Shown here: in pieces, positions 1 through 17,570 of the stretch
How positions within the stretch are numbered: position 1 is the first letter of the stretch
Layout of the letters: each line of letters begins with the position of its first letter
Source: Patescibacteria group bacterium
GTDB taxonomy: Bacteria > Patescibacteriota > Patescibacteriia > UBA9934 > GWF2-40-263
Assembly (NCBI GenBank): GCA_038065075.1
Contig: JBBTRQ010000001.1
Span: forward strand, 2,823-66,822
Length of the DNA: 64,000 nucleotides
Reading direction: 5' to 3'
Translations under genes and position numbers: made by a program
The notes under the pieces: generated by a model
The model's database searches: none
Told to the model about the DNA's origin: nothing
Seen by the model: the letters and a program-made list of their open reading frames with translations, nothing else

Positions 1-3000
1 GTTGAAATCTCCACACAGACCCGAGTCGCAGGACGTACTGCTCGTACACACGTCACTGGCATCCGAAGCGCTCGCGCAGACTCCGCTGGCGTTACACGCG
101 CCCGAGCCATACGACGGAGTGACAAAGTACGCATCACATTGCGTATCGACAATACAGGTCTCGCCCGCATCATCGAAATCCGTACAAATATCCCCTACAC
201 CGCAGGCCGCGCCACCGCCGCCGCAGGTTCCCGTGTCGCAATCTGCATCAGTCGTACAGATTGTTCCGTCCGAGCACAGCGCTCCCTCCCAATCTTCATA
301 ATCGCCATCACATTCCTCCGAGCCGTTCACGCGACCATCGCCGCAAATAAGTCCTGGGGATGTGCAATTATAGGCACAAGCATCCGTCGCGTTGTACTGG
401 CCATTGGAAACCGCGCACTCGGCGGCCAGATTGAGGTACGCCCAGCTTGCCGTGTCCGCGATCACACTCGAGTAGTTGGATGTCGTTCCGCAATCGCACT
501 GTTCACTGGAGGCCAAGTATCCGTCACCACAGTAGATGGCATCACCCGCGCCACACTCATCATCGCAATGACCGTAGGTTCCATTGAGCGAACCGTCGTC
601 GCAGGTCTCACCCGTTTCGACAACGCCGTTGCCACACTCATAGGCGCTGCATGATGATGTGTTGGTCGTATCCCAGTAACACTGATTCGACGAATTGATC
701 GCACAGGCGTACGTCGTTGTGCCGCTCGCACACGTTCCACCCGTTCCGCACTGGGCATCACTCTCGCACCCTTCATCGCCGTCATACGTATCGTCATCTG
801 GATTTACGCACACCGTACACGTTGCGCCGGTCGTAGTATCACCAAGTTCACAGGTTTCACTCGCTCCTTGTGTTCCGTCACCGCACAACGAGGAGTCTCC
901 CCATGTGCTTCCGTCACAGAATACCGGCGTGGCCGAGAATCCTGAAAGGGCGGAAGCCGGCGCATAGTCTGTCGGATACTCTACGTACACCGTCACCTCA
1001 TCGGAAAGCTCTGTATCAAGCGCGTAGCCCCATGTGTACTCGCCCCCGTCAGACTCGAGCACCGCGTACAGTTTGTATGCCTCCCCTCCCACGCTCTGGT
1101 ATCCATAGAGGTGCGAGTTCTCTGGACAGATAAACGACCCCTCTTCTCCGTTCCAGCAAGAAGCAGAGTCGTATCCGTCTTCCGAACAGTCATAAAACTC
1201 GTTCACCGGATCGCTCGGAAGCGCCGTGCCTAAGTCGTTCCCTAACGACGCACTCCAGGAACTCCAGATAGAGTTAGACAACGCGGGCACAAATGTTCCA
1301 GACTGCACCTCGGGGAATCCCGCCATGCACTCCTCCTCCCCTGGACAATTATAATCTGTATCACAGGACTGTCCCTTTGTGACCGAGCAGTGACCGTTGG
1401 CGTCGCCATACTCGTCAATCGTCGTCGCTATATCGACCACGTCCAAGAGACGCGTCATGTCACGCGTGAGCTTTCCCTTCTGGGCGTCACACATGATCGA
1501 GCTGTCCTCGAATGCCTCATAGCAATCCCCATCCCACTCGCATGTCACGTATTCTCCCGAGGTGTCATCATCACTCTCGTAATACAGTTCATAACTCAAC
1601 GTCGTTTCATCCTGGCACAAGTTGATATCCGTCACCTCGTCCGTGTTGCCGTTGAAGCGCCAGTTCGCGAGAAGCTGATTAAAAATTTCCTGCGCGTCAT
1701 CGCTGGCGTCCTCGTTGTAAGAGACGATGTAGATGTTGGGATAGATGGTTGTCCCACTCACATTCGCGGCCGCGGCATACAGCGTGTTGCCGGCTGAGAC
1801 GGCTGGATATCCGTCGAGTTCTGTTTCCGAAAAGGTGCCGGTAAACTCCTGTCCCTCAACCCAGGCACTGGGAGTTAAATACGATCCATTTCCTAAACAC
1901 GATTCGCCTGATGGACAATCTGAGTCGGCGCTACAAGAGGTGGAAGTTGTCGTCGAACAGAAGGAAACGTTGGGGATGACGCGTACACCGATCGCATCAC
2001 TGGAATCTTCCACTTTAAAAATGAGTTCCTGAAGAATGCCAGAAGATGCGAGAGATGTGACATCGATCGGATCCTCGAGTGCTGGCAGGTCATCCTCGGT
2101 TCCTGTCTCACCGGCATCGCGGCAGTAATAGAATGAAAAGTTACTCGGCAAAACATCTTCCAGATACGGGAAATCAAGCGTCGTCGATTCAAGCGACGGC
2201 CACGGGTTCTCACAAACGAGGGCGGTCACCTCGAGGAGCCCCGTGACGGTGCGCGCGGCGATCGCGGGGATGGCGGCGCTCGTGGCAGTCGCGGGGATCG
2301 CGGCAACGGCGACGGTTGTCGGTTCAAAGAGTTCATCAGTCGTGATGGTCGCGGTCGCAAAGACTTGCTCTCGGCCGGAGGCACCGCTTGCGGTGTAATT
2401 GCGTGTCGTGTCCTGCGGCGTCTCAGGCGCGGAGGCGACCACGTCTGTTTCTCCCGCGTCCGTCAACGAGGATGCCCACCCCCACTCCCACGCGTAGAGC
2501 TCTGGCAACGGCGCGATCTCTTCATACCCTCCCGCGCGGTAACTCTGGGGGGTGGCGATGAAGGCGTGCTCCTCGCCGGTTGCGCTAAACAGCCCCACGC
2601 TTGCACCCTCGTTGACGCTCACGTCAACATTCCCGAGATCCTCCAGGGTGACTCGATCCAGATCGCAAACCTCCGAACCCACGGCAAACGTGCGGACGAA
2701 TTGCGCGCTACCGCACGCGTCTCCCAGGCACAGGGTCACGTCCGAAGGCGTAAGCATGCCATCCTTATTTTCATCGTGGCCAACGTTGTCCGCGACGACC
2801 ACCAAGCGATAGACGGCGTTCTCCTCCAGAAGCTGGCCGTAGGCAAGTGCCACGCGCGCGGTTCCGGCTTGCGCGTCGACAATCGTCTGGGAATACGTCA
2901 CCGGCACATGGCAAGCAAACGTCGAGGAAGCCGACGCGTCGTTTCCAAACAGACCCATCACGAACCGCTTGAACCAATGCCATAGGCGCATGGCCGAACT

Positions 3001-6000
3001 GGACTCGGGCGGGAGCGCCGCGCCGACGTAGCCTGTGGGACAGTCGGTGATCTCGTCCACCGCTTCCTGCGCCCCGTCGCCGTTCCCGTCCACGCTCACC
3101 AAGTCCAAATAGAGATTCGCGTGAAATTCGTTTTGCTGGATGATGCCATCGCCGTCGGTGAGCTCGACCACGCCGTCCTGATCGTTGTCCTGCGTTGAGT
3201 CAAACGTGGCGGCGTCCATGAACTCGCTGAACTCCACCCAGACGGCCGTGTTACGGCACAAGCCGTTGGCCGTGTCTGTCTCAAACGCCGCGAGGTTGTC
3301 CGTCGGACTGACGGTTCCCAGCGTGGGGCGCGCAAAACAGCAAGACTCCGCGCCGCAACCCAGTGCGGCTCCGCCACAAGAGTCATTGGTGGTACAAGCG
3401 CATTGCAGGCGCAGCGTGGCATCGTCGGTCACGTCTTCGTCGACCGTGACGGATATGGTGGAGACCGCGTAGCCGGTTGTCTCGTTGACTTCCCTGGGAG
3501 CGCCCGGCGCCACTTGGGCGACGGAATACGAGCCCGCAGAGAACACTGAGGAAGCGGGCGCGTCACATTCCTCGCCCACGCCTTGTGCGTTGCCGTCTCC
3601 GCAAAAGGACGGAATCGAGTATAGGTAGGAGGAGCCCGACCACAAACAGCGGTTGCCACAGCCTTCCTCCCCGTCGCACTCCTCGCCCAGATCAAGGTCA
3701 GTGTTGCCGCAACAGTTGGGCGACGCGGAAGTGGGGCACGAGGGCGTTCCCTCCCACAGGCAGGAGCTTGAACAACCGTCAGGCGCCACGAGCGTGGAAG
3801 AAGCCAGCGCCGTGGGAATGGGATCGCAATCCTCTCCCGGCTCAACGACCTGGTTGCCGCAGATGGCGTAGACGTTCTCTTCCGACTCCGACCCTTCCAA
3901 CAGACATCGGTTCGAACAGCCGTCGCCGGAAATCGCGTTGCCGTCGTCGCAGTCCTCGCCGCCGGTATTGCTCGCCCAGTCACGCGGGCCCGCGTCCCCG
4001 CACGTCGCCCCCACCAAGAGCGATCCTTCGTTCTTGCAGATGGAAGAACAGCCGTCGCCGCTGGCGAGATTTCCGTCGTCGCAGTCCTCGCCGCCGGTCT
4101 CGATCGTCCACTGGCGAATCCCGTCCCCGCAGCAGCCGATTCCCGTCAGTTCGCACGTGTCGCCCACCGCGTAGGTACAATCCGAATCCTGACCGTTGCA
4201 AGAGTCGCCCGTGATCGAACACGACCCAACGCAGGAAAGGGAGTCGCATTGGGTGAAGCTCCCGCAGGCCTCATCGGCATCGGCAAAATCTTCGCATTGA
4301 CCCGACGTCGAACAGGCTCCGCTGTCACATTCGCTGTCAAGCGCGCAGGCCTGGTTCACATCCGCGGCGGAAGCGCACACCGCTTCCGCGCAGACTTCCT
4401 CGCACGAGGCATCATTCACGCACGGCGCGTCGGATTCTTCGCAGGCCAAGGGGCATTGGGCATGCTCCTCAAACACGCCTTCATTCAAACAGTTCTGCGA
4501 ACAGCCGTCGCCTGGCAATGTGGCGCCGTCATCGCACTCCTCCGGCGCCTCCACGCTTCCGTTACCGCACACGCCGTCTTCCACGCTCACCGTCGAGCCG
4601 GCGTTGAGACAGGCCGCCGTGCAGTACGCCGGGAGCGTGCCGGCAAGCTCAATGGCGCCGCCCAAAATCATGTAGGCGACGACCTCGTCGTTATTGAGAG
4701 CCAAGCTGGCGGCCGCGCCAACGGCGTTGGGCGTATCCGTGGCCGTCCAGGCTTCCCATGCGTAATCGCCCGCCTGAAGCGTCTGGCCTTGTGCGGAACA
4801 CTCATCAGGCTCGCCCAAAGCCGTGGCCGCAAACTCGGCGCGCGCGCCGACATAGCCCAGGGTGGCAAGGGCGGGATCGATCTCCACCGAGTCAATCGAA
4901 CAGCTGACCGCATCGTTCTTGGTGCGGAAGATCCAAGAAAAGTCTCCGGGGAAGTACCGGTTCTCATCCGTGCCATAATTGGAGCCCGACTGTGCAAGCG
5001 CGATGCCCGTTTGGGAGACAACGGCGTCGCCGTCCACGACCACGCGGTACCACGTGTTGGGATCCATCGTCAGCGGGGGGGCAAACAGAATCGAGAACCG
5101 GCGCGTGGTCGCGCTATACCCGATGGCGCTCACTAAATCCACATCGTCAAGACCGGACGTCTCGCACAGCGAATTCAAACACTCGTACAGCGTGATACTG
5201 TTCTCCCCGATCGTGGCCTCGTCCATGACCGTGTTGAACTCGCCCCATGGCAAGGCGTTGACGCAGGCCGCGGTACACCGCGGGAAGTAATCGTCGATTT
5301 TCGGGTCGAGGAAATTGATCGTGAGATCGCCCGTGCCGGACGGATCGTTCACCGCGTTGGTGACCGTAGCGGTAATGAGAGCCGGATCGTTCGCGGGCGT
5401 CTCCGCTTGGGCGTTCACGACGTTCGCGCAGATCCCGATCCCGGGCGCGGACACGGGGATCAACGCGCCGTCAAAATCCGATTCCCAGTCAAGCGCGTAG
5501 CCGGCGCAGGAAAGCGCCACGCACCGGTCGTTTTGGGCGGTGAGCTGGGCGGAGTAGTCCACGTCCGCTTGTTGGGTCTGCGTGTACTCATTTGGCCGGA
5601 CGTTCACGTCCCCCACCTCGCAGGGAGTGTTCACGGCGCTGGTGGTAAAGTCCCATTCGTAATCCTCTTCCAAATAGCCGCCCGCGGCGCTCCGGATTTG
5701 ATCCGCGCCCTGCAGACTCACGCGGTACCAAGTGTCGGTTGCGAGGCTACCGACAATGGGCGTCCATGAAAACCCGGTCACGTCCGGGACGACGCTACCG
5801 GGCACCAAGACCCAATTTTTGCATGCGCCTTCTTGCGCGAGCAGACACGTTTCATCGGGATTCTCACAATCGAAATCGCTCGAGCACTCCGCGGCCGCGA
5901 ACGAACAGACTTCCAGCGCGCTCGTTTCCTCTGCGAGCGTGAAGGTCTGCGCGCACGCGCGCACCAACACGGTGGAAGCGTTCATGGTCGGTTTCACCAT

Positions 6001-8961
6001 CGTCATGTTGAACTCGGCCTCCACCGCGGCGTTCACGCATACGTCCTGCGGATCGCTCCACCCCTCCCAGGGGCTGGGTGAGACACCCGTTCCCGTGCAC
6101 TGGACGAGCACGTGCGGGGTGTTGGGTGTGATTCCCGTGGTGATCATGAAGGCGTAGTGGGCCTCAACCTCAGTCACGTCCTCACATGACGTCGAACACG
6201 CTCCGTTGGAACAACAGCTCTCTCCTTCGGCACACAAATCCGCATCCTCCCGACAGTCGCCGACGGTAAAGGTGATCGAATTGGAGGAGTATCCGTTTTC
6301 CGCTTCCTCAACGTACACAGGACCGGTCACGGCCTCGTCGGGCACGACAACGGAAGAAATCTCGTCATTCTCCCACAACGTGAAGCCGGCTTCTTGAATA
6401 CGATAAAACGTCACGGTTCCGTCGTCGGTTCCAAAATTTTCACCGTAAATTGTCACCTCAACTTCCGCCGGCGCGCTCGATGGATCAATGTCACAGATGG
6501 CCGGTCCCGGGGTGTCGTCCAAAACGACGAAATCTGTCGCGTCCGATTCCTGCCCGTCCGCGCGCTCAAGCGTGAGCGCGTGGGTTACGGCTTCGATCGC
6601 GTCCAAGCTTTCTGTTTGATAGACCTCCGGAACCTTCACGGTTACGTACGTGTCATGCCAGAAATCGTCCCCACACGCGTCCGGAAAATCGGTGTCGCCC
6701 AGGGCGGTATAGCCCAAGGACTCATTCTCAAAAAAGATTGATCCGGTTGTCGTTCCAAATCCTGTTCCGTACACGGTGATGTATTGTCCAGCTGGCCCCC
6801 AGTTCAGCGCGTCCTCACACGTCGCTCCCTCGCCACAGTCATCGTCATCGCCACAGTGCACATTGTCGTCGGAACACGCCTTCCAACCGGAATCGACCGA
6901 GGAGATGACTGGACTCGAGGAACTCGAAACATCGACTGCCGTGAACGTGACCTTATTTGATCCCACACGCACAGACTCGCAACTTCCGCCCTCGTCGCCA
7001 CAATCATCGTCGTCGCCGCAATACTTGAGCGTCTCGGAACACCACGACGTCGCGCAACTCTCACCTGTCTCGGTGTCACAATCCTCATCGTCTGAGCAGG
7101 TCGTCGCCGTTGCCTCGCCATCGGAGGTGATACAAACGTAGTCGCCTGTAAACACCTGCGTAAGATACGTTCCCGAGTTTACGTTGGGAACAACGACATC
7201 GAGTTGGTCGTCAGACCAAGAAATGTACGAGCTCGCTTCGTAGTTTGTAAAATAGAACGTCGACGAACCTTGGGTCTCGCCGAAACTGTTGCCGTACACA
7301 TCGATCGAAGAGCCGTAATCATCTTCATCAGGGTCAAGCAAACACACGCCCGGACGTTCAATCGCGTTGACATCGAAGTCTGCAATCGACGGGCCATAGT
7401 CGTCGTCGGTGCGCTCGGTCTCGTCGTCCGATGTTGTGACAGAAACAGGGCCATCCACGGCGGCGCTTGGAACCTGAACAATGATCTGCGAATCCGACCA
7501 CTGCGTGGAAGCGTTACATTCGTACGCACTCAGTTCAACTTCATCTCCCGATTCCGTTCCTAGGAACGCAATAACACCTTCGTCTTCTCCAAAGCCCTCA
7601 CCGGAAATCGTGATCAGATTTCCCCCAGCGCCGTCTCCTGGCGACACGCCTTCAATCTTCGGAGTCGTCACGCAGGAACCGTCCACACATTGGCCGCTGG
7701 CGCACTCCGCGTCTTCCGTACACTCATCGCCGTCACAGGAGCCGCAGTAGTACGCGCTCGTGGAGTCGCCACCGCAGTCGATTTCCTCCTCACCCAAATC
7801 TTCGTCGAGGACTTCGTTGTTACAGTTGGCGGCACGCAAAACGATGCTTACGCGGGAGGCGGTATCCGTATTCCCCGCGCAATCGTATCCGGTCGCCCAC
7901 ACGTCATATTCCTCGTTGGTGGTGTAGCCTTCCGTATCCCATTCTTCTGCCGAGTCGGTGAAAAATGCATTCTCGACGCTCGCGCCTGTCACGGCTCCCG
8001 TGGATGAGAAGTCTACTCCCGAGGAGTAGATCGCCTCGTCATCATCGATCACATAAAAATCGACGGTCGAAACACCACTGTCATCTGTCGTAAGTACCTG
8101 AAGCATTTCGATCGATCCCGCGTAGAGACTCTCCCCGTCTTCTGGCGCGTCCATCGTGACGCTTGGATCGTCGATATCGACCTCGGTCCCGGTTGTGAAA
8201 CCAAAGGTGCAGGGATAGGTCGTCGTGCACGTCAGGGATGAGCCGGCTGAGGACTCGACCACGCTCGAATCTACATCAATCGTGTACTCCGACGACGCAT
8301 CGAAACAAAACTCTGTCTCGTACGGGCTGTCACAGGCCTGGGATGGTGTGAATGTCACGGTGCGGCCGGACGTCGAAAACGTTCCGACCACGGGACTGCC
8401 ACCAGAGTCGGCAACCACGATTCCCTCCTCCACGCTGTCAGAATCGACACTCTTGGAAAAAACAAATTGAAGCTGGAGGTTTTGGAGAGACTCGGCACAT
8501 TCTGTATTGACTGAGCTCAGATAAAACACCGAACTGCTACTGCTATCCGAGTAGGAACTCGAGTTTGAACTGCTTCCAGAAATATCCGTCCCGGTCGCGT
8601 CCACGAGCGCCCCCAGCACAAACGACACAATGGCGAAGCTCGCAAACACCAACAGCAGACCGATGATGGCGTTTGTGATGATACCCTTGGCTTTCTTCAA
8701 CCGCTCTGGATTCCCTCCGGCGGTCATGTACACAAATCCTCCGTAAACCATGAACGCAACAGTCACGACTCCCACGAACGTAATGGCCGTGCGGATGAGT
8801 CGGGCAATAATGACCGTGATGGTGGCGTCGGTCGAAAACCCGGCCGTTTCCGCAAACGACTCCATGTCCACATCCTGTGCAAACGCCGGCACGGCGACAA
8901 AAACCCCGGCACTGAGGATCAGTGCAAGTAGGAAGCTGTGGATGTAACGATTCATCTTCAT
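1..8961 (-). CDS. giant secreted/cell-surface protein, 5' end complete and 3' end beyond window start (>=2987 aa in window); N-terminal signal peptide plus TrbC/VirB2-like (T4SS pilin-like) two-helix module, then Cys/Asp/Gly-rich adhesin-like region with myxo-type cysteine-rich repeats (CGDG..GEDCDDGN..SGDGCS..C), IPT/TIG-like repeats (xYGxxFG) and Ser/Thr-rich linkers
   Basis: Manual translation of the minus strand from ATG at 8959-8961 gives MKMNRYIHSFLLALILSAGVFVAVPAFAQD... Frame checked stop-free at several sampled places down to nt 1 (no TTA/CTA/TCA in + triplets starting at 3k+1). It is absent from the ORF track because it has no in-window stop. All other-frame ORFs in 1-8900 are short and are interpreted as spurious high-GC antisense/out-of-frame ORFs. 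Confidence 0.6.
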   Translation of the reverse strand, partial: MKMNRYIHSFLLALILSAGVFVAVPAFAQDVDMESFAETAGFSTDATITVIIARLIRTAITFVGVVTVAFMVYGGFVYMTAGGNPERLKKAKGIITNAIIGLLLVFASFAIVSFVLGALVDATGTDISGSSSNSSSYSDSSSSSVFYLSSVNTECAESLQNLQLQFVFSKSVDSDSVEEGIVVADSGGSPVVGTFSTSGRTVTFTPSQACDSPYETEFCFDASSEYTIDVDSSVVESSAGSSLTCTTTYPCTFGFTTGTEVDIDDPSVTMDAPEDGESLYAGSIEMLQVLTTDDSGVSTVDFYVIDDDEAIYSSGVDFSSTGAVTGASVENAFFTDSAEEWDTEGYTTNEEYDVWATGYDCAGNTDTASRVSIVLRAANCNNEVLDEDLGEEEIDCGGDSTSAYYCGSCDGDECTEDAECASGQCVDGSCVTTPKIEGVSPGDGAGGNLITISGEGFGEDEGVIAFLGTESGDEVELSAYECNASTQWSDSQIIVQVPSAAVDGPVSVTTSDDETERTDDDYGPSIADFDVNAIERPGVCLLDPDEDDYGSSIDVYGNSFGETQGSSTFYFTNYEASSYISWSDDQLDVVVPNVNSGTYLTQVFTGDYVCITSDGEATATTCSDDEDCDTETGESCATSWCSETLKYCGDDDDCGDEGGSCESVRVGSNKVTFTAVDVSSSSSPVISSVDSGWKACSDDNVHCGDDDDCGEGATCEDALNWGPAGQYITVYGTGFGTTTGSIFFENESLGYTALGDTDFPDACGDDFWHDTYVTVKVPEVYQTESLDAIEAVTHALTLERADGQESDATDFVVLDDTPGPAICDIDPSSAPAEVEVTIYGENFGTDDGTVTFYRIQEAGFTLWENDEISSVVVPDEAVTGPVYVEEAENGYSSNSITFTVGDCREDADLCAEGESCCSNGACSTSCEDVTEVEAHYAFMITTGITPNTPHVLVQCTGTGVSPSPWEGWSDPQDVCVNAAVEAEFNMTMVKPTMNASTVLVRACAQTFTLAEETSALEVCSFAAAECSSDFDCENPDETCLLAQEGACKNWVLVPGSVVPDVTGFSWTPIVGSLATDTWYRVSLQGADQIRSAAGGYLEEDYEWDFTTSAVNTPCEVGDVNVRPNEYTQTQQADVDYSAQLTAQNDRCVALSCAGYALDWESDFDGALIPVSAPGIGICANVVNAQAETPANDPALITATVTNAVNDPSGTGDLTINFLDPKIDDYFPRCTAACVNALPWGEFNTVMDEATIGENSITLYECLNSLCETSGLDDVDLVSAIGYSATTRRFSILFAPPLTMDPNTWYRVVVDGDAVVSQTGIALAQSGSNYGTDENRYFPGDFSWIFRTKNDAVSCSIDSVEIDPALATLGYVGARAEFAATALGEPDECSAQGQTLQAGDYAWEAWTATDTPNAVGAAASLALNNDEVVAYMILGGAIELAGTLPAYCTAACLNAGSTVSVEDGVCGNGSVEAPEECDDGATLPGDGCSQNCLNEGVFEEHAQCPLACEESDAPCVNDASCEEVCAEAVCASAADVNQACALDSECDSGACSTSGQCEDFADADEACGSFTQCDSLSCVGSCSITGDSCNGQDSDCTYAVGDTCELTGIGCCGDGIRQWTIETGGEDCDDGNLASGDGCSSICKNEGSLLVGATCGDAGPRDWASNTGGEDCDDGNAISGDGCSNRCLLEGSESEENVYAICGNQVVEPGEDCDPIPTALASSTLVAPDGCSSSCLWEGTPSCPTSASPNCCGNTDLDLGEECDGEEGCGNRCLWSGSSYLYSIPSFCGDGNAQGVGEECDAPASSVFSAGSYSVAQVAPGAPREVNETTGYAVSTISVTVDEDVTDDATLRLQCACTTNDSCGGAALGCGAESCCFARPTLGTVSPTDNLAAFETDTANGLCRNTAVWVEFSEFMDAATFDSTQDNDQDGVVELTDGDGIIQQNEFHANLYLDLVSVDGNGDGAQEAVDEITDCPTGYVGAALPPESSSAMRLWHWFKRFVMGLFGNDASASSTFACHVPVTYSQTIVDAQAGTARVALAYGQLLEENAVYRLVVVADNVGHDENKDGMLTPSDVTLCLGDACGSAQFVRTFAVGSEVCDLDRVTLEDLGNVDVSVNEGASVGLFSATGEEHAFIATPQSYRAGGYEEIAPLPELYAWEWGWASSLTDAGETDVVASAPETPQDTTRNYTASGASGREQVFATATITTDELFEPTTVAVAAIPATATSAAIPAIAARTVTGLLEVTALVCENPWPSLESTTLDFPYLEDVLPSNFSFYYCRDAGETGTEDDLPALEDPIDVTSLASSGILQELIFKVEDSSDAIGVRVIPNVSFCSTTTSTSCSADSDCPSGESCLGNGSYLTPSAWVEGQEFTGTFSETELDGYPAVSAGNTLYAAAANVSGTTIYPNIYIVSYNEDASDDAQEIFNQLLANWRFNGNTDEVTDINLCQDETTLSYELYYESDDDTSGEYVTCEWDGDCYEAFEDSSIMCDAQKGKLTRDMTRLLDVVDIATTIDEYGDANGHCSVTKGQSCDTDYNCPGEEECMAGFPEVQSGTFVPALSNSIWSSWSASLGNDLGTALPSDPVNEFYDCSEDGYDSASCWNGEEGSFICPENSHLYGYQSVGGEAYKLYAVLESDGGEYTWGYALDTELSDEVTVYVEYPTDYAPASALSGFSATPVFCDGSTWGDSSLCGDGTQGASETCELGDTTTGATCTVCVNPDDDTYDGDEGCESDAQCGTGGTCASGTTTYACAINSSNQCYWDTTNTSSCSAYECGNGVVETGETCDDGSLNGTYGHCDDECGAGDAIYCGDGYLASSEQCDCGTTSNYSSVIADTASWAYLNLAAECAVSNGQYNATDACAYNCTSPGLICGDGRVNGSEECDGDYEDWEGALCSDGTICTTDADCDTGTCGGGGAACGVGDICTDFDDAGETCIVDTQCDAYFVTPSYGSGACNASGVCASASDASDVCTSSTSCDSGLCGDFN

Positions 8962-8966
8962 GTTTT

Positions 8967-8994
8967 GGTAGCCGCAAGCTTTAGCTTGCGTGCG
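8967..8994. repeat. palindromic repeat family 2 copy (GGTAGCC-GCAAGC-TTTA-GCTTGC-GTGCG), intergenic between the two pilin-like genes
   Basis: Same architecture as copies at 13467-13524 and 24991-25018. Confidence 0.6.
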
Positions 8995-8996
8995 TT

Positions 8997-10904
8997 CTAC
9001 AGTTCCGTCTCCGTGTTATCTGGGAGCGTCTCATCTTCCGCCGCCGCTTCTTGTTCCTCTGTCTGACATGCGCTTGCGGAAGAAATCCCGTTACAGCAGT
9101 AAGGTTGGTCTTCGTCTCTTCCTTCCGTGCAGTTCGATCCCGGGCCGATCGCCGGGTACATGCAGATCTGGTACGCGCTCTTGATCCCCTCGCTCAAGAC
9201 CGGCCAGTAGTCCCAGCCGCCAAGGTCTGTACTTACGAGCGTCGGATGCTCGATCAGTACGGTCGTGCGCTCTTCCACATCGTCATTGGACTTGCGGATC
9301 GCGAACCAAAATTCGTAATACGGATCAGGCCACAGGGACACACTGCTCGTATTCACCGTCGAAGACTTCAGATAGCTGTTGAACGTGACCTCCACGTCGG
9401 CGCTGGTACTGATCTCATCCTCCTCTATCTCGGGGTCGAGACCACCCGTAATAATCTGCGGCACGGTGTCTTCAATCTCGTCGTTGGTCGTGAAGCTCCA
9501 CTCGTAATTATCGTTGTCGCCAGCATCTTCACACTCGATGGTGTCTGACTCAGATCCACAAATGGTTCCCGCGACTTCCGGATCATAATCATTGTCGCCA
9601 TCCAGCGAATTGGCGGCCGCGTCCACGACTCCATCAAACGTGTATCCCGTTGGCTCTGCTTGAGGAATCTCTTCCTCGTTCAATGTTGCCGCTTTGGCCA
9701 TGGCCGAGATGAGCTGGTTGGTCGGGAGACAGTAAATGGTGTCCCCACACGGGTCTTCTCCACACGCGTCGGTCGTCGTGAAACTGATCGTGCGATACGC
9801 ATTGCTGATCTCAAACGTGCCTTCAACGTTGGCGAGTGCCGCATCGAGAACTTCAATGTTCGTGAATAGAGGCTCCTCGCCGATGATGTAGGAACCTGTA
9901 GTCGCAACTGGATCCATGGCCTCGCTGAAATTGATCTCGACGGTCACGTTGCGTGGCTCGTCCGCATCCGCCGCCGGAACAATGCTGGTCACATACGGTG
10001 GTGTCAGGTCGATTTCTGTAGAAACTTCAAACGTCCAGGAGTACCCACTCGCGTACGCACCGGAAAACGCGGCCGTGCCAGATGCCCGCTCAATGTCGGT
10101 TGTGAGCGACACGGTGTAATTTGTGTCTTGTTCGGATGAGCCGAGATACTCGACGGGATCAAAGACGAAAATCTCAAAGCCCTCATCGTGGGTCACGACC
10201 ACCTCATCGGAGGCAAGAGCCGATCCCGGACCCTCATCCGTTGGATAGATAACAACGGAATCGGTATTGAGATCCGTGGAGTCAGGATCCTCATCGTATC
10301 CGGAAATCATGGACGCAGGATTGATCGCCTCCTTGAACGTCACGAAGATTCTGGTGTTGCGAGGGATCTCGGTAGCGTCACGCTCGGGATAGTGGTCGTC
10401 GAGAATACCGCCGCCCAGTGAACCGGAAAGCGGCTCCGAATACGCGTCGGCCACGGCGGCGGACGAGCCGGTGAATGCCGCGTCCAACAGACGGTTCAAA
10501 ATGAACGTGGCGATCGAATAGGCGGAAAAAATGATAATGAGGCCGATGATGGACTGCTGGAAAATCTTCTTAGCTTTCTTGATCGGCTCTGGTTCCCCAC
10601 GAGCCAGCAAGTAGAGAAACCCCGCATAGATGATGACGCAGACAAAGATGATGCCGACCAAGGTCAGAGCCACGCGAATGACGCGCGCGATGATGATGGC
10701 GATCGAATCTTGTGAAAGGGTAGAGGCGTCCGCAAACTGTTCGAAGGAGGTGTCTTGCGCGAGGGCAGGAAACGCCACCGCGAAGAATCCAACAACGCAA
10801 AACGCCACGATCAAAACAATGAGCGCGCGTGCAAAAGGTCTAAATGGGTGCGCGAGAGGTCGATGCATGTTGGGACGCCTGCGCGTGCCTCTATTGTATC
10901 GCAT
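8997..10904 (-). CDS. secreted surface protein, 635 aa: signal peptide (..AFPALAQD) plus TrbC/VirB2-like pilin module paralogous to the giant gene N-terminus, followed by bacterial Ig-like/Big-type extracellular domains and an acidic C-terminus
   Basis: ORF track. The N-terminal 150 aa align motif by motif with the giant gene N-terminus (..IIAR.IR.A.T.VG....V..Y.GF.Y...G.PE..KKAK.I....IIGL...F). Possible alternative start at Met13. Confidence 0.6.
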   Translation of the reverse strand: MRYNRGTRRRPNMHRPLAHPFRPFARALIVLIVAFCVVGFFAVAFPALAQDTSFEQFADASTLSQDSIAIIIARVIRVALTLVGIIFVCVIIYAGFLYLLARGEPEPIKKAKKIFQQSIIGLIIIFSAYSIATFILNRLLDAAFTGSSAAVADAYSEPLSGSLGGGILDDHYPERDATEIPRNTRIFVTFKEAINPASMISGYDEDPDSTDLNTDSVVIYPTDEGPGSALASDEVVVTHDEGFEIFVFDPVEYLGSSEQDTNYTVSLTTDIERASGTAAFSGAYASGYSWTFEVSTEIDLTPPYVTSIVPAADADEPRNVTVEINFSEAMDPVATTGSYIIGEEPLFTNIEVLDAALANVEGTFEISNAYRTISFTTTDACGEDPCGDTIYCLPTNQLISAMAKAATLNEEEIPQAEPTGYTFDGVVDAAANSLDGDNDYDPEVAGTICGSESDTIECEDAGDNDNYEWSFTTNDEIEDTVPQIITGGLDPEIEEDEISTSADVEVTFNSYLKSSTVNTSSVSLWPDPYYEFWFAIRKSNDDVEERTTVLIEHPTLVSTDLGGWDYWPVLSEGIKSAYQICMYPAIGPGSNCTEGRDEDQPYCCNGISSASACQTEEQEAAAEDETLPDNTETEL

Positions 10905-10981
10905 TTCTCTTCAATGGTCGCTCAAAATATGTGGACAAAACAAAAAGAGCGAGCCTTGCGCCCGCTCTTTCTCTTGAATGA

Positions 10982-11734
10982 TTATCCGATCTCCTGCAGA
11001 ACAAGCGTGCTGATGCCAAAGAGGCCGGCAACGATCAGGGTGGCGAAGATGCCGTACGTCATCTTGGTGAGGGCGTCCGTATGCAAGTCATCGCGATTGG
11101 AGGCGATCATGTAAGCAAACCCGCCTTGTAGGATCAACGTAATCGCCGCAACGCCCAGCCAAAGCATAAGCACACGAACGATCCTCAACATAAACTCCGC
11201 GTAGGCAGGACCGCTTGAAAATGTCTCGATAAGCGGAACCGCGGCAAGAGCCTCGTGCGAGAAACTCAGTCCTACAACCACGAGCACGAACCCAGCCAAG
11301 AGCGATCCCACAATGTCCTTCACGCGAGATCCATCCGCGCGCCCGGCGACGGCGGCCATGGCCGCTCCCATCACCTTGCCCATATCGGCCTTGCTGGTCG
11401 CGCCGCTTTTTTCCACGACCTCCTTCACGATCCGCGCAAGCTCTTCGTCGCTCATCTGAGTGGGAAGATACTGTTCCAAGACGCCGATCTCCACCTGGAC
11501 ACTCACAGCCAAATCTTCTCTCCCGCCAGCCTTAAAGGACTCAATGGAATCCTTGAGCTGTTTGACCTGCGTCTTCACCACGTCCTGGACTTCCGCGTCC
11601 GAGAGTTCGTGTTGCACGTCGATCTTTTTATTCTTCATGGCAGAAAGCAACAAACGCAACGTGGAAAGCGTTGCGCTGTCTTTGGCTTTCATGGCAGCCT
11701 TCATGTTTTCTGTAATCTTCTCTGCCAGGGACAT
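10982..11734 (-). CDS. yqeY: GatB/YqeY-domain protein (aa 1-150, full-length match to YqeY) fused to a C-terminal TM segment plus TrbC/VirB2-like pilin module (aa 150-250)
   Basis: N-terminal half matches the YqeY consensus through ..SKADMGKVMGA...G.ADG; the C-terminal 100 aa match the paralogous pilin module (..RIVRVLMLWLGVAAITLILQGGFAYMIASNRDD..YGIFATLIVAGLF). Conserved rpsU-yqeY gene order. Confidence 0.65.
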   Translation of the reverse strand: MSLAEKITENMKAAMKAKDSATLSTLRLLLSAMKNKKIDVQHELSDAEVQDVVKTQVKQLKDSIESFKAGGREDLAVSVQVEIGVLEQYLPTQMSDEELARIVKEVVEKSGATSKADMGKVMGAAMAAVAGRADGSRVKDIVGSLLAGFVLVVVGLSFSHEALAAVPLIETFSSGPAYAEFMLRIVRVLMLWLGVAAITLILQGGFAYMIASNRDDLHTDALTKMTYGIFATLIVAGLFGISTLVLQEIG

Positions 11735-11743
11735 AGTCGAGGA

Positions 11744-11992
11744 TTAACGACGAGGGCCGCCCTGTGGACGTACAGTCTCTTCAAGCTGACCCACGCGAAT
11801 GAGATACTCGCGTCGGGCTCGGGCGACGATACGTCGCAGAGCGCTCTTTTTGACCTTCGTCTTATTAGGCTCCTCTACACGGAAACGTGTCTTCCTTACT
11901 TGAAGCATGCTTCCGCTTTGTTGGACGCGTCGAGAGAAGCGTCGGTAGAGGCTTTCAAAACTCTCGCCTTTTTTACGTTTAACGTTCACCAC
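11744..11992 (-). CDS. rpsU: 30S ribosomal protein S21
   Basis: 82 aa, basic, ..ESLYRRFSRRVQQSG...ARRE.. bS21-like. Confidence 0.75.
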   Translation of the reverse strand: MVNVKRKKGESFESLYRRFSRRVQQSGSMLQVRKTRFRVEEPNKTKVKKSALRRIVARARREYLIRVGQLEETVRPQGGPRR

Positions 11993-12022: not shown

Positions 12023-13456
12023 TTAAGCGATTGGATTTTGCGGAATGTTAGGGATTTTGTCAAGTTCTTCGTGCAGAAGCTTGCGCTTTACCAATCCCAC
12101 CACCTTTTTGACATCGACAATTTCCTGAGCCCCTGATTCCATGTCTCGAATGATGATGGTCCCATCAAGCACCTCTTTTTGACCCAAGATGAGGGTGAGT
12201 TCGACACCCATCTTGTTGGCAGCCTCGAGTTGGCCTTTCAGGGCATTCTTTCCAAACGCCTCCGCAACGGGTATGCCAGACTGGCGAAACTCCTCAAACA
12301 GTTTAAGGCCTACGCGTCGTGACGCATCCCCGAGCTGGGCGAAAAACACTTTTGCTGGTGGACGCTCCGGGGGGTTGATCCCCTTTGCTTCAAGCGCGCG
12401 AGCGATGCGCTCGATCCCCAGAGCAAACCCACAGGCGGGCGTAGGTCGGCCGCCAAGAAGTTCAACCAGACCGTCATATCGTCCACCCCCGCCCAAGGCA
12501 CTTTGTGAAAAATCTCCCACGTCTTCTTGAAGCGTGTACTCAAATACGGTGTGCGTGTAGTAGTCGAGTCCGCGAACGAGGTAAGGGTTAAGCTGATAAG
12601 GCACTTCAACCTCTTCGAGGAATTCCAAGACTTTCATGAAGTGTTCCTTACTCTTCTCGTCGAGCCAATCCAGAATCTGCGGCGCGCCCTGCAAGAGTTC
12701 GCGTGTCACTTCTTCTTTACTATCTAGGATGCGCAGAGGGTTCTTCTGCAAGCGACGTTTGTCGTCCTCGGAAAGTTTACTGCGATGTTGACGGAAGTAG
12801 GCCACCAGCTCGGTCAAGTACGCCACACGGCACTCAGACGTACCAATCGAGTTGATCTCGACCTTCACGTCCAGTCCAAGCTGTTTAAAAATCTGGTACC
12901 CGATGACGATAAGCTGGGCGTCCACAATAGACTCGTCCACGCCAAAGCTCTCAAATCCCGCCTGATAAAACTGACGATAGCGTCCAGCTTGCGGGCGATC
13001 GTGACGGAACATGGGTCCTAAGTACCACATCTTTACCGGCTGAGGACGATCGAGCATCCCGTGGCTGATGTAGGCACGCGCGGCACTGGCCGTCGCTTCG
13101 GGACGCAAAGCCACGGAGCGGTTTGAAGGATCGGTAAACACATACATCTCTTTCTCGACGATATCAGTCCCTTTCCCGATCGTGCGCTGGAACAAATCCG
13201 AGCGCTCCAGAATCGGAAGATCGATACGGTCAAAACTGTAGGACTCAGCAATGGACCGAATGGTGTCGCGCACTAAATTCCATCTTCCCTGCTCCTCTGG
13301 AAGGATGTCTCGAAATCCGCGTAAAAGCTCAAACGTCTTCCCGGATTTTCCTTCGCCTTCCTCCTCAACGCCCTCTTTCTTTGGCTCCTCCTTTGGTGGC
13401 GTCATTTTTTTCGAGGCTATCTCCTTTGCTGGAGCTTTTGATTTTTTCGGGAACAT
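12023..13456 (-). CDS. hisS: histidine--tRNA ligase with Lys/Glu-rich N-terminal extension
   Basis: Class II HisRS motifs (FELLRGFRDILPEE, GGGRYDGLVELLGG, CGFALGIERI). Confidence 0.9.
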   Translation of the reverse strand: MFPKKSKAPAKEIASKKMTPPKEEPKKEGVEEEGEGKSGKTFELLRGFRDILPEEQGRWNLVRDTIRSIAESYSFDRIDLPILERSDLFQRTIGKGTDIVEKEMYVFTDPSNRSVALRPEATASAARAYISHGMLDRPQPVKMWYLGPMFRHDRPQAGRYRQFYQAGFESFGVDESIVDAQLIVIGYQIFKQLGLDVKVEINSIGTSECRVAYLTELVAYFRQHRSKLSEDDKRRLQKNPLRILDSKEEVTRELLQGAPQILDWLDEKSKEHFMKVLEFLEEVEVPYQLNPYLVRGLDYYTHTVFEYTLQEDVGDFSQSALGGGGRYDGLVELLGGRPTPACGFALGIERIARALEAKGINPPERPPAKVFFAQLGDASRRVGLKLFEEFRQSGIPVAEAFGKNALKGQLEAANKMGVELTLILGQKEVLDGTIIIRDMESGAQEIVDVKKVVGLVKRKLLHEELDKIPNIPQNPIA

Positions 13457-13552: not shown

Positions 13553-14158
13553 CTACAAATTATAACTGGGAAGATCGAACGTGCCGATGCGAGAGAACGG
13601 AAGGCCGCGAACCCAGACGCGTCCGATGACGTCATCGCGGGTGATGGCGCCGAAACTGCGGGAGTCCAGGCTGGAGTCGCGGTTGTCACCAAACATGTAG
13701 TACTCATTATCCCCGAGGGTCACCCGAACCTTGCCGGTCGTCGACTCCTCTAGGTATGCCTCTTCGAGCACCAAACCGTTTGGATGCTCTGTGTTATAGA
13801 CCATGACGTTCCCGCCGGTCACTTCTATCGTCTCGCCAGGGAGTCCCACCACACGCTTGATGAAATACTGGCTGCGATCGCGTGGATATTTGAAGACGAC
13901 GATCTCTCCACGAAATGGATTACGGAAACGATAGGTGAGCTCGTCGATGATGAGATACTCTTGATCGTAGAAATTTGGTTCCATGCTTGCCCCTTTAACG
14001 TAGAACGGCTGGATGAGGAAGTATCGGATGGGAATGATGATGGCGCTGGAGATGATCACGATCTGGACGATCTCGAACAAAAAGGACAGCACAGCGCCCC
14101 CCACAGGCCCAAACCGATCGTAGAGTTTATCTTCAAAAGCCGAAAAACGTGAGGACAT
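13553..14158 (-). CDS. lepB: signal peptidase I
   Basis: S26 motifs GASMEPNF, YFIKRVVGLPGE, GDNRDSSLDSR. Confidence 0.85.
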   Translation of the reverse strand: MSSRFSAFEDKLYDRFGPVGGAVLSFLFEIVQIVIISSAIIIPIRYFLIQPFYVKGASMEPNFYDQEYLIIDELTYRFRNPFRGEIVVFKYPRDRSQYFIKRVVGLPGETIEVTGGNVMVYNTEHPNGLVLEEAYLEESTTGKVRVTLGDNEYYMFGDNRDSSLDSRSFGAITRDDVIGRVWVRGLPFSRIGTFDLPSYNL

Positions 14159-14255: not shown

Positions 14256-14570
14256 CTATTTATTTATCCACTCAAGCATTCGATTGAGTGCCGACTTGGG
14301 AGCCAGTTGCAAATACCCTTGCGGAAGATTATAGCCAGGTACTGTGTAACCTGGTGGTGATGTATAGCCGCCCGGGGTGGTGTATCCAGGTGTTCCATAA
14401 CCGGGAACGAGGCTTCCACCAAACAAACTTCCACCTGAGCGGTTCTTGAGTGAAACAGCTCCCGCGGCTGCCGCGGCCGCTAAGACAACCACCAGACCAA
14501 CGGCTACGGCCGTCCGTGTCGAACTAGTTACCTGCGTCTTCGTCATAGATATCAAATGAAGTGAATTCAT
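14256..14570 (-). CDS. small secreted/membrane protein with PGY/TPGG tyrosine-glycine-proline repeats
   Basis: ORF track; N-terminal hydrophobic segment plus GYTTPGGYTSPPGYTVPGYNLPQGY low-complexity. Overlaps the start of the upstream gene, so start uncertain. Confidence 0.35.
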   Translation of the reverse strand: MNSLHLISMTKTQVTSSTRTAVAVGLVVVLAAAAAAGAVSLKNRSGGSLFGGSLVPGYGTPGYTTPGGYTSPPGYTVPGYNLPQGYLQLAPKSALNRMLEWINK

Positions 14571-16614
14571 AAATGGTCATGCCCTCCTGATTCAATAGAC
14601 GATCAGCTCCTTCCTCCAGCTCCGCAAGAAGCTCCGGCGTCCACGCCCAATAGGCTGGCGCGGCAAAGTAGATGCGACGAACACCTGTCTCTTGAGCCAT
14701 TCGCAAGTAGGCTTCCTGAGAGGGCCCTTCATAGATCGTCGAGGTGTAGAGCCCGTAGAGTGATCCCCCTGTAGGGATAGCATACCAGAGAATCTCTTGA
14801 CCTTCATACCGATAGGTGTGGGCAAAACCAAACTCCTGAATAGCCGCCGCGCTCATGAGTTGGTGAGAAAGCACCAGATAAGGTTCGCCCTGACTCGCTT
14901 CCTCAATCAAATGGACTCCTTCGACATCGACAGCACTAACACCTGGAGAGAAGAACGGATACTTCAGGTTGTACTGCGGATAGGAAAAAAACCAAACGAC
15001 CACGACCAGAAGCGCCAGGAGAAACACCCTCCCAAACTCGAATCGGTGCAGACGTGCGAACACAACGACAAGGGGTGGAAGTGCAAACGTATAAAGAGCC
15101 TGCAGGAGACGAAGAGCGAACTCGAGCTGTTCATGCTGGATGATCCCTTCAAACGTGAACAGCGTCGACGCTCCCCAAATCGTCAGGAGGAGTCCAAGGG
15201 AAAACGTCAGGTGCCCTCGTGCGTTCGCGCGAACCGACGTACATGCGCATACAACGACCAACGATGTGAGGAACACCACGATGGGCAACCAATATCGGAA
15301 GTCATACAGGAAATCGAGTGCCCAGGGAATATACGGATACGGACCCCAGTAGGGACTCGCGAACAATCGGAAGAAGTCTGGAAGTTTTGTGACGAGCAGA
15401 CGGAGGCTACCACCGAGGTTCGTGTGCGATGCAATGGCTAGCATCGCGGGAACGGTGAGACCGACGAGCAGGACAGCGGCGGCGATGAACGCTATCCTCG
15501 CCAAAAAACTCTGCCGACCGACCACGAGGCGCTCGAAGAACAAAAAGACGAGAAGCGGCACAGCCAAGAGCGGATGGAACAGGACAGCGGCGACGAGTGC
15601 GAGCATGACCGACGCAAAACAAACTCGTGGTGCGCGAGCAACCCACGGATATGCCACCATAAAACCCAGGAATAGAACATACGTGACCGTGAACGGAACG
15701 GTGAATGTCGCCAGCATGAAGGGAATCGCAAGGATCCCGATCCACCACATGCGGGCCTGGCGTCGTGTAAGTCCCCACCCATGCTCGAACCCAAGGGTAG
15801 CCATGATTGGCAACCAAAGGCTCTCCACAACCGGCACGAGCCAGATGTCGATGAGCTTCACACTCAAGCCAGTCAGATGATGCAACGCGGCGACGATGAC
15901 GTACTGGCCGCTGTAGAGGAGTCGAACGGGCTCGACGACTCCTGTCTGCACGAGTGCCTCCTCAGCCGCGCGGTGCAGGAAGGGATCAAAGCCAAAGCCG
16001 ATGGCATACACGATCGCGGAAACGCTCAATGCGCTGAATGTCACAAACATCCATCCAATGAGCGGAACATCATCATCCCGCTCGCGTGCCGCAAGGATAG
16101 CCGAAACGATCGCGACGAACAGCAGAACAAAAGGCTCAGGACCAAACAGATTCCACGGGCTCACCAGAGGGATGTCTGTGCGCGCCAAGACCATGAGGCT
16201 AATGAGTAGCAGGCTTGCCAGAAGGCTGATGGCGCTGAAGAGCCAGGGTTGATTGCGTTCAATGCTCGGACACGGAAAAAAGCACATAACCCGACCTGAC
16301 CCCACGAGCAAACATCCGATGGTCACGAGCCAGAGGGTGAGCAGAATCATCCTCTCGTCCAAACGACCAACCGAGAGGTAAAGCCCGACCAAAAAAATCG
16401 TCGAGGTACCAAACACGGCCAGGGAACCAACAACAAGGCGCTCCCAAACATCCCTCCCAAAAACGGCCACGCGGCCAATCAAGACGACAACGCAACCAAA
16501 AAAGAGGAGGCTTCCAACCACCCCTATCCACCACATTCCAACACCCACGTTCATGCTCAAAATCACGCTGGCAACCAAAAGCACGATCCGTGGAGGATCC
16601 CAACGCATACTCAC
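14524..16614 (-). CDS. polytopic membrane protein (>=14 TM helices) with C-terminal extracytoplasmic domain; function unknown (glycosyltransferase-C-like topology)
   Basis: ORF track, hydrophobicity pattern. Confidence 0.5.
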   Translation of the reverse strand: MSMRWDPPRIVLLVASVILSMNVGVGMWWIGVVGSLLFFGCVVVLIGRVAVFGRDVWERLVVGSLAVFGTSTIFLVGLYLSVGRLDERMILLTLWLVTIGCLLVGSGRVMCFFPCPSIERNQPWLFSAISLLASLLLISLMVLARTDIPLVSPWNLFGPEPFVLLFVAIVSAILAARERDDDVPLIGWMFVTFSALSVSAIVYAIGFGFDPFLHRAAEEALVQTGVVEPVRLLYSGQYVIVAALHHLTGLSVKLIDIWLVPVVESLWLPIMATLGFEHGWGLTRRQARMWWIGILAIPFMLATFTVPFTVTYVLFLGFMVAYPWVARAPRVCFASVMLALVAAVLFHPLLAVPLLVFLFFERLVVGRQSFLARIAFIAAAVLLVGLTVPAMLAIASHTNLGGSLRLLVTKLPDFFRLFASPYWGPYPYIPWALDFLYDFRYWLPIVVFLTSLVVVCACTSVRANARGHLTFSLGLLLTIWGASTLFTFEGIIQHEQLEFALRLLQALYTFALPPLVVVFARLHRFEFGRVFLLALLVVVVWFFSYPQYNLKYPFFSPGVSAVDVEGVHLIEEASQGEPYLVLSHQLMSAAAIQEFGFAHTYRYEGQEILWYAIPTGGSLYGLYTSTIYEGPSQEAYLRMAQETGVRRIYFAAPAYWAWTPELLAELEEGADRLLNQEGMTIYEFTSFDIYDEDAGN

Positions 16615-17570
16615 GACTGTTTATCCCCCACCCAATCGTCAACAACCTCCTGAATGTCTCTGGCGGTCACACAGTCCTCGCATGTCTTAGCCGCGGCGTG
16701 CACGAGTCCTAGCGGGACACCGTGCCCGCGTCGTGAAAATTCAATCGCCACCTTGGCAGACGCCTCATCCATTACATCGATTGCCTTATCCGGAAGGAAT
16801 CGATTTTTGATTCGTTCATTCGAAAGCCGCACCGCTTCTTCAAGTGCTTCATCTTCAATCTTCACCTTATGGAACGTCTCATAGGCTGGGCGAATATGCT
16901 TGAGCATAGCCAACGCTTCCTGCGGGGTCGGTTCATCAACCGTCACGGGCTGGAATCGACGATCGAGCGGTTGGTCTTTTTGAATTGTACGCTCGTACTC
17001 CGCCCAGGTTGTCGCACCAATAACTTGAACCTCCCCACGAGCCAGCACAGGCTTGAAAACATCAGACACGTTGAGCGATCCCTCGGCACCCGAAAGCTGA
17101 TCGAGCATATGCACTTCGTCGATGAACAAGATCGCGCGACCTTGCATGCCTTGAAGTTCTGCTAACATCCGACGAAGCCGCGACTCCATCTCACCGCGAT
17201 ACTTGGTATCAGAAACAATCGAAGTCAAATCCAATGAGAGCAGCTGCTTATCCTTGAGTCCCTCGGGAACATCCCCGCTTGCTATACGACCGGCGAGCCC
17301 TTCGACAATGGCGGACTTCCCAACACCGGGCTGTCCGATAAGCAAAGGATTGTTCTTGGTTTTGCGCATGAGGATGTGGATCATGCGTTCAATCTCTTCC
17401 TCACGGCCAAAGAACAACTCCAGCTTATGCTCGCGAGCGAGCTGAGTAAGATCCTTTGAAAACGATCCAAACGAAGCTGGCTTTTTGGACGAAGGCCGGC
17501 GAAAGAAGACGAAGAATCCTCCCGCCGCAACCAAGATGAGAACCAGAACAAACAAGAGAGAGTCAGACAT
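16611..17570 (-). CDS. membrane-anchored AAA+ ATPase resembling the first nucleotide-binding domain of ClpA/ClpB/ClpC
   Basis: N-terminal TM helix; Walker A GQPGVGKSAIVEGLA, ..YRGEMESRLRRML.., ILFIDEVH. Confidence 0.7.
   Translation of the reverse strand: MSDSLLFVLVLILVAAGGFFVFFRRPSSKKPASFGSFSKDLTQLAREHKLELFFGREEEIERMIHILMRKTKNNPLLIGQPGVGKSAIVEGLAGRIASGDVPEGLKDKQLLSLDLTSIVSDTKYRGEMESRLRRMLAELQGMQGRAILFIDEVHMLDQLSGAEGSLNVSDVFKPVLARGEVQVIGATTWAEYERTIQKDQPLDRRFQPVTVDEPTPQEALAMLKHIRPAYETFHKVKIEDEALEEAVRLSNERIKNRFLPDKAIDVMDEASAKVAIEFSRRGHGVPLGLVHAAAKTCEDCVTARDIQEVVDDWVGDKQS

Follow-up and report, generated by a model that had tools for sequence, protein, structure and literature searches.

Introduction

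YqeY proteins are widespread in bacteria, where the gene usually lies beside rpsU, and a structure has been available since 2003. The known members are soluble and about 148 amino acids (aa) long, and to our knowledge the family is still without a known function. Here we describe a yqeY gene from a Patescibacteria group bacterium whose product differs from this soluble stand-alone form, being 250 aa long and carrying three hydrophobic helices after the YqeY domain. The gene occupies 10982..11734 on the minus strand of a 64,000-nucleotide (nt) stretch of DNA, hereafter the window (assembly GCA_038065075.1, contig JBBTRQ010000001.1, positions 2,823-66,822 of the forward strand), and encodes a YqeY domain, a signal-peptide-like helix and a two-helix pilin-like module in a single frame. 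Our best reading, which we hold with moderate confidence, is that signal peptidase I would cut this fusion, leaving a YqeY that stays with the membrane and a pilin-like protein of 86 aa.

The conjugative propilins F TraA, Ti VirB2 and RP4 TrbC have unusually long leaders that are cut by signal peptidase I, leaving a two-helix mature pilin; these leaders lack structure and measure tens of residues, in contrast to a folded domain of 145 aa. Patescibacteria widely carry VirB2-like genes, often in multiple copies (PMC12102498, PMC12857230), and small stand-alone pilin genes occur in arrays in the candidate phyla radiation (CPR) (PMC12102498). For the first half, rpsU and yqeY form one co-regulated unit in Francisella (PMC13374519). 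The glutaminyl-tRNA synthetase GlnRS of Deinococcus has a YqeY paralogue at its C-terminus (PMC1865053), the C-terminal domain of GatB is likewise related (PMC2811023), and a subunit of the GatB/YqeY superfamily bridges the two arms of complex I in Pichia (PMC12487887).

A literature search found no paper combining YqeY with Patescibacteria and none describing a YqeY-pilin fusion. Both halves belong to known families and it is the domain architecture that is new. Existing records annotate the homologues only as GatB/YqeY domain-containing proteins, so the membrane half is invisible to anyone using them.

Results

A complete YqeY domain with a conserved membrane extension

A first-pass annotation, made from the sequence alone, had described an uninterrupted in-frame fusion at this locus without giving its strand. 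The open reading frame (ORF) check of the window agrees, with 250 codons plus stop on the minus strand and no stop codon or frameshift within them. The first 144 residues (11303..11734) are a complete YqeY domain, as had been claimed. PF09424 matches aa 5-146 across positions 2-143 of its 143-position model (E 7.7e-48; 162.7 bits, cut-off 27), and an AlphaFold model of the fusion, built with 39 homologues, shares 43% identity over 143 columns with Bacillus subtilis YqeY (1NG6); its mean predicted local distance difference test score (pLDDT) is 74. A Foldseek search with this model returned 1NG6, 8XJG and 8XJE at E 2e-8 to 3e-6, with target-normalised TM-scores of 0.65-0.85. Only the YqeY half was matched meaningfully among the structures of the PDB, a two-helix hairpin not being discriminating in such a search. 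The remaining 105 residues consist of three hydrophobic helices, of which the model places the last two at 176-210 and 215-249.

The same architecture recurs widely. An identical protein (P0001) is found on 10 contigs, and the gene is present with 0-1 nt differences on at least five contigs from other assemblies. Contigs with this exact gene include some from groundwater samples, named Hain_H51 and Hain_H52. It had been suggested that relatives be searched for YqeY proteins longer than 200 aa, and homology searching returned at least 110 clusters (at 90% identity) of 235-290 aa, covering 94-100% of the query at 48-100% identity. The full-length homologues that have a name are labelled Candidatus Uhrbacteria, as most are, or Patescibacteria, and among GTDB species representatives the fusion occurs at 13 loci. 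Fused members have diverged to 43-48% identity. Within one clade of Candidatus Uhrbacteria no yqeY gene could be detected other than the one for a complete YqeY domain whose last helix runs straight into a propilin-type leader.

We compared the gene with an 86%-identical relative and obtained ratios of nonsynonymous to synonymous substitution (dN/dS) of 0.038 for the YqeY part and 0.115 for the C-terminal 110 codons. The proportion of nonsynonymous differences (pN) was far below that of synonymous differences (pS) in all seven other pairs, the synonymous sites of the distant pairs being saturated at a pN of 0.23-0.38. On these low values the extension is selected coding sequence in this frame. 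The first-pass annotation had worried about an assembly artefact, and a related explanation would be a recent loss of the yqeY stop codon followed by a decaying, non-functional extension. Nothing beyond the unusual architecture speaks for either, and we regard both as refuted by the identical sequence in other assemblies, the more than one hundred diverged full-length homologues, and the strong purifying selection and conserved motifs across the extension. The fusion is a real, ancient and clade-specific architecture under purifying selection.

Two shorter proteins that we considered as truncated or split variants, P0036 (157 aa) and P0120 (137 aa), are partial fused proteins, the former lacking the first 93 residues and the latter stopping at residue 137, and they do not point to a stop codon within the gene. 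Several loci of typical Uhrbacteria type (L005, MHBF01000167.1; L007, L009, L012 and others) are deposited as 'Lentisphaerae bacterium GWF2_44_16' or 'uncultured Gammaproteobacteria bacterium', likely through mis-binning or mislabelling. In an otherwise identical assembly (L084, 1-1211) hisS appears as two ORFs of 364 aa and 96 aa, probably because of a frameshift error, and the adjacent yqeY fusion is intact.

The extension is related to type IV secretion pilins

The extension had been described as a pilin-like membrane module and as a third copy of the module with which the two following genes begin, and both descriptions stand when profiles are compared. The homology is visible at the profile level only, as a direct Pfam scan was negative and BLASTP of the fusion C-terminus against the N-terminus of the neighbouring protein was marginal (21% identity, E 5e-4). 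A match of the C-terminal 116 aa to Cyt_bd_oxida_II was weak and judged spurious. Among the modules of 31 relatives, eight match PF18895 directly, all weakly (best E 3.8e-4). A profile of these 31 modules, searched against 1.84 billion representatives, retrieved 2003 proteins at E up to 1e-3. The top 150 matches comprised 20 YqeY fusions, 87 small proteins with a single module and at most 180 aa (the smallest 72), 32 proteins with two or more matched stretches, six with the module C-terminal after a different N-terminal part and five with it at the N-terminus of a long protein (343-3260 aa). The small single-module proteins typically consist of a signal peptide and two helices. Ten matches were checked and all ten carry PF18895 above the Pfam cut-off.

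We also compared the 31-module profile by hhalign with the modules at the N-termini of the two downstream families, whose members had been gathered by synteny at 21 and 18 loci. The scores were 98.1% (E 1e-13) and 98.6% (E 1e-15). By these profile comparisons residues 145-250 form a divergent T4SS_pilin module, with a homology to pilins that is far beyond chance, and belong to the VirB2/TrbC-like pilin superfamily.

The conserved positions are concentrated in the two-helix part. Helix 2 of the fusion (aa 184-210; 11105..11185) aligns with helix 1 of PF18895-type modules and carries the motif RxxRV..LW.G....IL.GGF.YM, including the GGF of the fusion family. In the 39-homologue alignment R187, G194 and G228 are invariant, and V188, L191, G204, F206 and T243 are at least 90% conserved. 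A short charged loop (aa 211-222; 11069..11104), predicted to be cytoplasmic, has the conserved pattern S.RD..H..A and leads into helix 3 and the C-terminus (aa 223-250; 10985..11068), which lie in the modelled helix 215-249. R214 and H218 reach at least 90% conservation in the full alignment, and R214, D215, H218 and A221 do so in the module-only alignment (module positions R74, D75, H78 and A81). The RD..H motif is specific to the YqeY-linked subfamily; the neighbouring proteins have GG(N/D/E)....KAK at this place.

The profile search also brought up P0129, P0153 and P0166, which are 500-555 aa long with six tandem T4SS_pilin modules and 12 hydrophobic helices ('poly-pilins'). P0129 matches PF18895 with 236 bits over six stretches.

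The junction resembles a signal peptidase I site

The YqeY domain is followed by a hydrophobic core, LLAGFVLVVVGLSF (aa 145-158; 11261..11302), whose hydropathy and charge are like those of a signal anchor or of a signal-peptide h-region. A c-region, SHEALA (aa 159-164; 11243..11260), comes next, and from motif statistics a signal peptidase I site is predicted between A164 and A165. Beyond it lies a variable acidic segment (aa 165-183; 11186..11242), which charge and the model suggest would be the extracytoplasmic N-terminus of the mature module.

These features are shared by the relatives. The core averages 14.3 aa, contains no charged residues and has a mean Kyte-Doolittle value of 2.47. The 15-residue flank ahead of the core contains 3.15 lysine and arginine residues on average, against an average of 0 over the 20 residues that follow the site. 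Core and site are separated by a 6-residue polar stretch that closes with an invariant alanine, so that position -1 is Ala in 39 of 39 relatives. Position -3 is A in 24, V in 11, T in two, S in one and H in one (A, V, T or S in 38/39), bulky residues prevail at position -2 (H, L, F, Q or Y in 34/39), and Pro does not occur at +1. The acidic segment averages 20 aa with no lysine or arginine and 2.2 aspartates and glutamates, and the distance from the site to the invariant R187 is 18-28 aa. In the model, pLDDT falls below 50 at residues 159-165, and residues 158-175, where it is lowest, have no regular secondary structure. By hhalign the invariant alanine aligns with the AxA sites of the N-terminal signal peptides of the neighbouring proteins, and the YqeY domain occupies the place of the N-terminal part of a pilin leader peptide. 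As far as sequence can tell, the junction has every feature of a signal peptidase I site.

The main rival to cleavage is a permanent tether, in which the three helices are never cut and act only as a pilin-derived anchor that keeps YqeY on the cytoplasmic side of the membrane, perhaps beside the pilin-anchored giant proteins. This is possible, if rather unlikely. In the model, the last helix of YqeY passes into the first hydrophobic helix without a break or a linker, and the same module anchors large surface proteins in CPR bacteria. However, a plain anchor gives no reason for an invariant alanine at -1 and a small residue at -3 in a region that is otherwise about 48% identical, and a core of 14 residues is short for a stable membrane span.

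The residues before the core also bear on another explanation, that translation initiates internally at M118, M122 or M126 to yield a prepilin of 125-133 aa with the C-terminus of YqeY as its charged leader start. In the window GGAG lies 5 nt before the ATG of M126, and MAAVAGRADGSRVKDIVGS would be a plausible start for such a leader. However, the GGAG is not a conserved feature, since across the 13 other fused loci the Gly-123 codon may be GGA, GGT, GGC or GGG. Two fused loci have GTG or GTC at codon 126, and the same methionines occur in unfused YqeY. Internal initiation is therefore very unlikely.

In four relatives the two parts are separate genes

Four relatives encode YqeY and the module as adjacent separate genes. 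In L016 (5998-6668) the stop codon of a 148-aa yqeY overlaps the ATG of a 75-aa module ORF, and in L092 (2055-2746) a 147-aa yqeY and an 81-aa module gene are 2 nt apart. In L091 (2548-3246) a 148-aa yqeY ends at an in-frame TAG, which is followed by a G-rich ribosome-binding site and an 81-aa module gene. In L090 (1-750) the start of yqeY is cut off by the contig end and its end is normal; a 92-aa module gene that begins MIEIVP... lies about 210 nt downstream, and the sequence between the two is open and non-hydrophobic. All four separate module genes encode the two-helix part only, without the hydrophobic core and the A-x-A site, and the separate protein of L090 begins exactly at position +1 of the site as it stands in fused relatives (A|AIEIVP...).

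Because these four relatives encode the two parts separately, YqeY and the module need not stay joined and their covalent linkage is dispensable. The split genes also show the first helix to be needed only in the joined form, where it would bring the start of the module to the outside. They also tell against the permanent tether, since in four lineages the module has been cut from YqeY with exactly the first helix gone, which removes any tether. The conserved signal peptidase motif and the split versions of the gene, both of which the first-pass annotation missed, suggest that the fusion may not stay in one piece.

In a first neighbour-joining tree of the YqeY domains, L016 was nested in the fused clade. 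We dropped this placement, as bootstrap support at the deep nodes was 1-54% of 200 replicates and L092 fell outside. The fused form keeps a pilin-type leader, which argues for a leader-bearing precursor as the starting point.

The fusion gene lies beside pilin-anchored surface proteins

The gene sits in the conserved rpsU-yqeY arrangement that had been noted at the outset. A gene for the ribosomal protein bS21, rpsU (11744..11992, minus strand, as are all genes of this cluster), lies 9 nt upstream; its own Ribosomal_S21 match (E 1e-4) is below the Pfam cut-off, and its orthologues beside the yqeY genes of relatives are called Ribosomal_S21. Upstream of rpsU is hisS (12023..13456), and three genes upstream of the fusion is lepB (13553..14158; Peptidase_S26 E 3e-40), which encodes signal peptidase I and is a candidate for the processing enzyme. 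Downstream, a 635-aa protein (8997..10904) has a signal peptide, a T4SS_pilin module (PF18895 E 1.1e-8) and Big_5 domains (E 7e-15). It is followed by a gene for a giant surface protein of more than 2950 aa (1..8961; N-terminus MKMNRYIH...), which runs off the window in a frame open across 1..9000 and whose orthologues are 3390-3528 aa long and carry PF18895. Both downstream proteins begin with a signal peptide and a T4SS_pilin module, followed by Ig-like repeats.

The order lepB-hisS-rpsU-yqeY, then a pilin-anchored protein of about 640 aa and a giant pilin-anchored protein, is kept in fused relatives, and a counterpart of the 635-aa gene lies downstream of yqeY in fused, split and unfused relatives. 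Unfused yqeY genes of 146-150 aa stand directly before the 640-aa and giant genes in Magasanikbacteria (L017), in other Uhrbacteria (L018, L063) and in L029, L038, L043, L044 and L057. As these lineages share the downstream part of the order, the gene cluster is older than the fusion. More broadly, the pair of surface-protein genes adjoins yqeY across Uhrbacteria, Magasanikbacteria and related CPR.

The conserved order of yqeY, 640-aa and giant genes would fit a tether that holds YqeY near the surface proteins, but it predates the fusion. In addition, a terminator-like hairpin of 13 pairs and a T-run (10942..10972, minus strand, found by pattern scan only) lies 10 nt past the fusion stop codon, between the fusion gene and the surface-protein genes. 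Its position right after the stop codon suggests that the fusion gene belongs to an rpsU-yqeY unit that ends before the next gene, rather than to the surface-protein operon.

The neighbourhood also bears on where the module came from. The first-pass annotation had favoured a duplication of the 5' end of the adjacent 635-aa gene, placed in frame behind yqeY. The neighbouring genes do start with the same signal peptide and two-helix module, the whole module aligns with theirs including the AxA site (hhalign 98%), and in unfused sisters yqeY directly abuts the 640-aa gene, so that a local tandem copy would land in the right place. However, the fusion is old (43-48% identity), and in sister lineages both downstream genes accompany an unfused yqeY. 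The bit scores of the fused module are no higher with the neighbouring modules (19-44) than with unrelated stand-alone pilins (47-58), and the fused module has its own loop motif (RD..H in place of GG....KAK). A recent duplication we reject, as there is no extra similarity to the neighbours, and the origin as first put forward is not supported in that form. It is possible only as an ancient event whose signal of origin is largely lost, and even so we find it doubtful, since the capture of a small stand-alone pilin gene fits the data equally well. Such genes form arrays in CPR (PMC12102498), and they can reside inside this cluster, as the unfused relative L029 has a 125-aa stand-alone pilin-like gene (7065-7439) between its 651-aa and giant genes.

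Other genes of the window deserve mention. A 104-aa protein (14256-14570, minus strand) has one hydrophobic helix and a Gly/Tyr/Pro/Thr-rich repeat, GYGTPGYTTPGGYTSPPGYTVPGYN, and its start is overlapped by the gene for a 696-aa protein (14524-16614, minus strand) with many hydrophobic segments and no Pfam match. An 897-aa protein (17576-20269, minus strand) with Chlamydia-PMP repeats and a right-handed beta-helix is probably another surface protein, and a 319-aa AAA+ ATPase (16611-17570) adjoins it. Two paralogous class II tRNA synthetases of the Asp/Asn/Lys type lie near each other (43289-44599 and 45895-47259, both minus strand). The pair is possibly of interest in view of the relation between YqeY and the GatB tail that binds tRNA.

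Discussion

From the observed fusion, its conservation, its pilin homology, the junction motif and the split forms we infer a topology, a cleavage and a partnership. In the reading we prefer, cleavage by signal peptidase I, the YqeY domain would stay in the cytoplasm and the 14-residue core would insert with its N-terminus inside and its C-terminus outside, exposing the A-x-A site on the outer face of the membrane. A cut of the 26.7 kDa full-length protein after A164 would then give two products. One would be a two-helix pilin-like membrane protein of 86 aa (9.3 kDa), beginning AVPLIETFSSGPAYAEFMLR, with its two termini on the outer side and the RD..H loop on the inner. The other would be a YqeY of 164 aa (17.4 kDa), which its hydrophobic tail would keep at the inner face of the membrane unless degradation of the tail set it free. 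The two would be made 1:1 and would probably cooperate, with the subfamily-specific cytoplasmic loop as a candidate contact.

Several points weigh against this reading. A folded domain of 145 aa before the signal sequence is unusual for a substrate of signal peptidase I, and, if the helix were an uncleaved signal anchor, small residues near the edge of the membrane could be retained for reasons unrelated to cleavage. A cleaved fusion would leave YqeY bound to the membrane, whereas the split forms make YqeY soluble, so the two states are not strictly equivalent. The pilin assignment has its own difficulties. The C-terminal 116 aa of the window protein gave no PF18895 match at E up to 10 in the direct Pfam scan, and composition can inflate the profile scores when hydrophobic helices are compared. 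We scanned 20 large ORFs of the window and found no VirB4, VirB6 or other gene of a type IV secretion system (T4SS), which leaves a true pilus role unsupported. With bootstrap values of 1-54% of 200 replicates at the deep nodes, and of 3-54% at those that bear on the order of events, we make no claim as to whether fusion or splitting came first, or for a single origin.

A conserved fusion together with repeated adjacent separate genes is a classic sign of functional partnership, and for YqeY it points to a small membrane protein of VirB2-like type. The lead on YqeY is concrete and testable, and it comes from organisms that are otherwise hard to study, the ultrasmall bacteria of groundwater. 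If the cut is confirmed, it would widen what counts as a signal peptidase I substrate and as a pilin leader. A more speculative extension, to which we give little weight, is that the fusion acts as a mini-polyprotein, the cleaved YqeY and VirB2-like protein staying paired through the RD..H loop; the pair could then hold a part of the translation machinery at the membrane near the export sites of the downstream-encoded surface proteins, which exceed 3000 aa. The idea of docking translation machinery comes from the co-regulation of YqeY with bS21 and from the relation of its domain to tRNA binding. If true, it would be the first functional handle on YqeY.

How does the fusion compare with described systems? 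Set against the YqeY proteins of known structure, from B. subtilis (1NG6) and from C. jejuni and V. parahaemolyticus (8XJE, 8XJG), the domain is complete, the fold is the same and so is the position after rpsU, but the protein runs on for 105 residues through three hydrophobic helices. In GlnRS, GatB and Pichia complex I the YqeY fold is likewise reused as an appended module, in Pichia within a membrane complex, and in GlnRS and GatB the YqeY-type domain is associated with tRNA binding. Unlike the fusion described here, none of these joins the fold to a transmembrane or pilin segment.

The membrane half shares with the VirB2-like pilins of CPR (PF18895; TrbC/VirB2, PF04956) an A-x-A leader, a mature N-terminus that is acidic, and two hydrophobic helices with a short charged loop. 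It differs from them in its loop motif (RD..H) and in falling below the Pfam threshold in the window protein, and above all in the folded 145-aa cytoplasmic domain before the leader, so that the precursor does not begin with its leader. The giant pilin-anchored proteins on CPR surfaces, which combine PF18895 with Big_5, TIG or VWA domains, use the same module in the same gene cluster. In those proteins, however, the module is N-terminal and the passenger is extracellular and C-terminal, whereas in the fusion the passenger is cytoplasmic and N-terminal.

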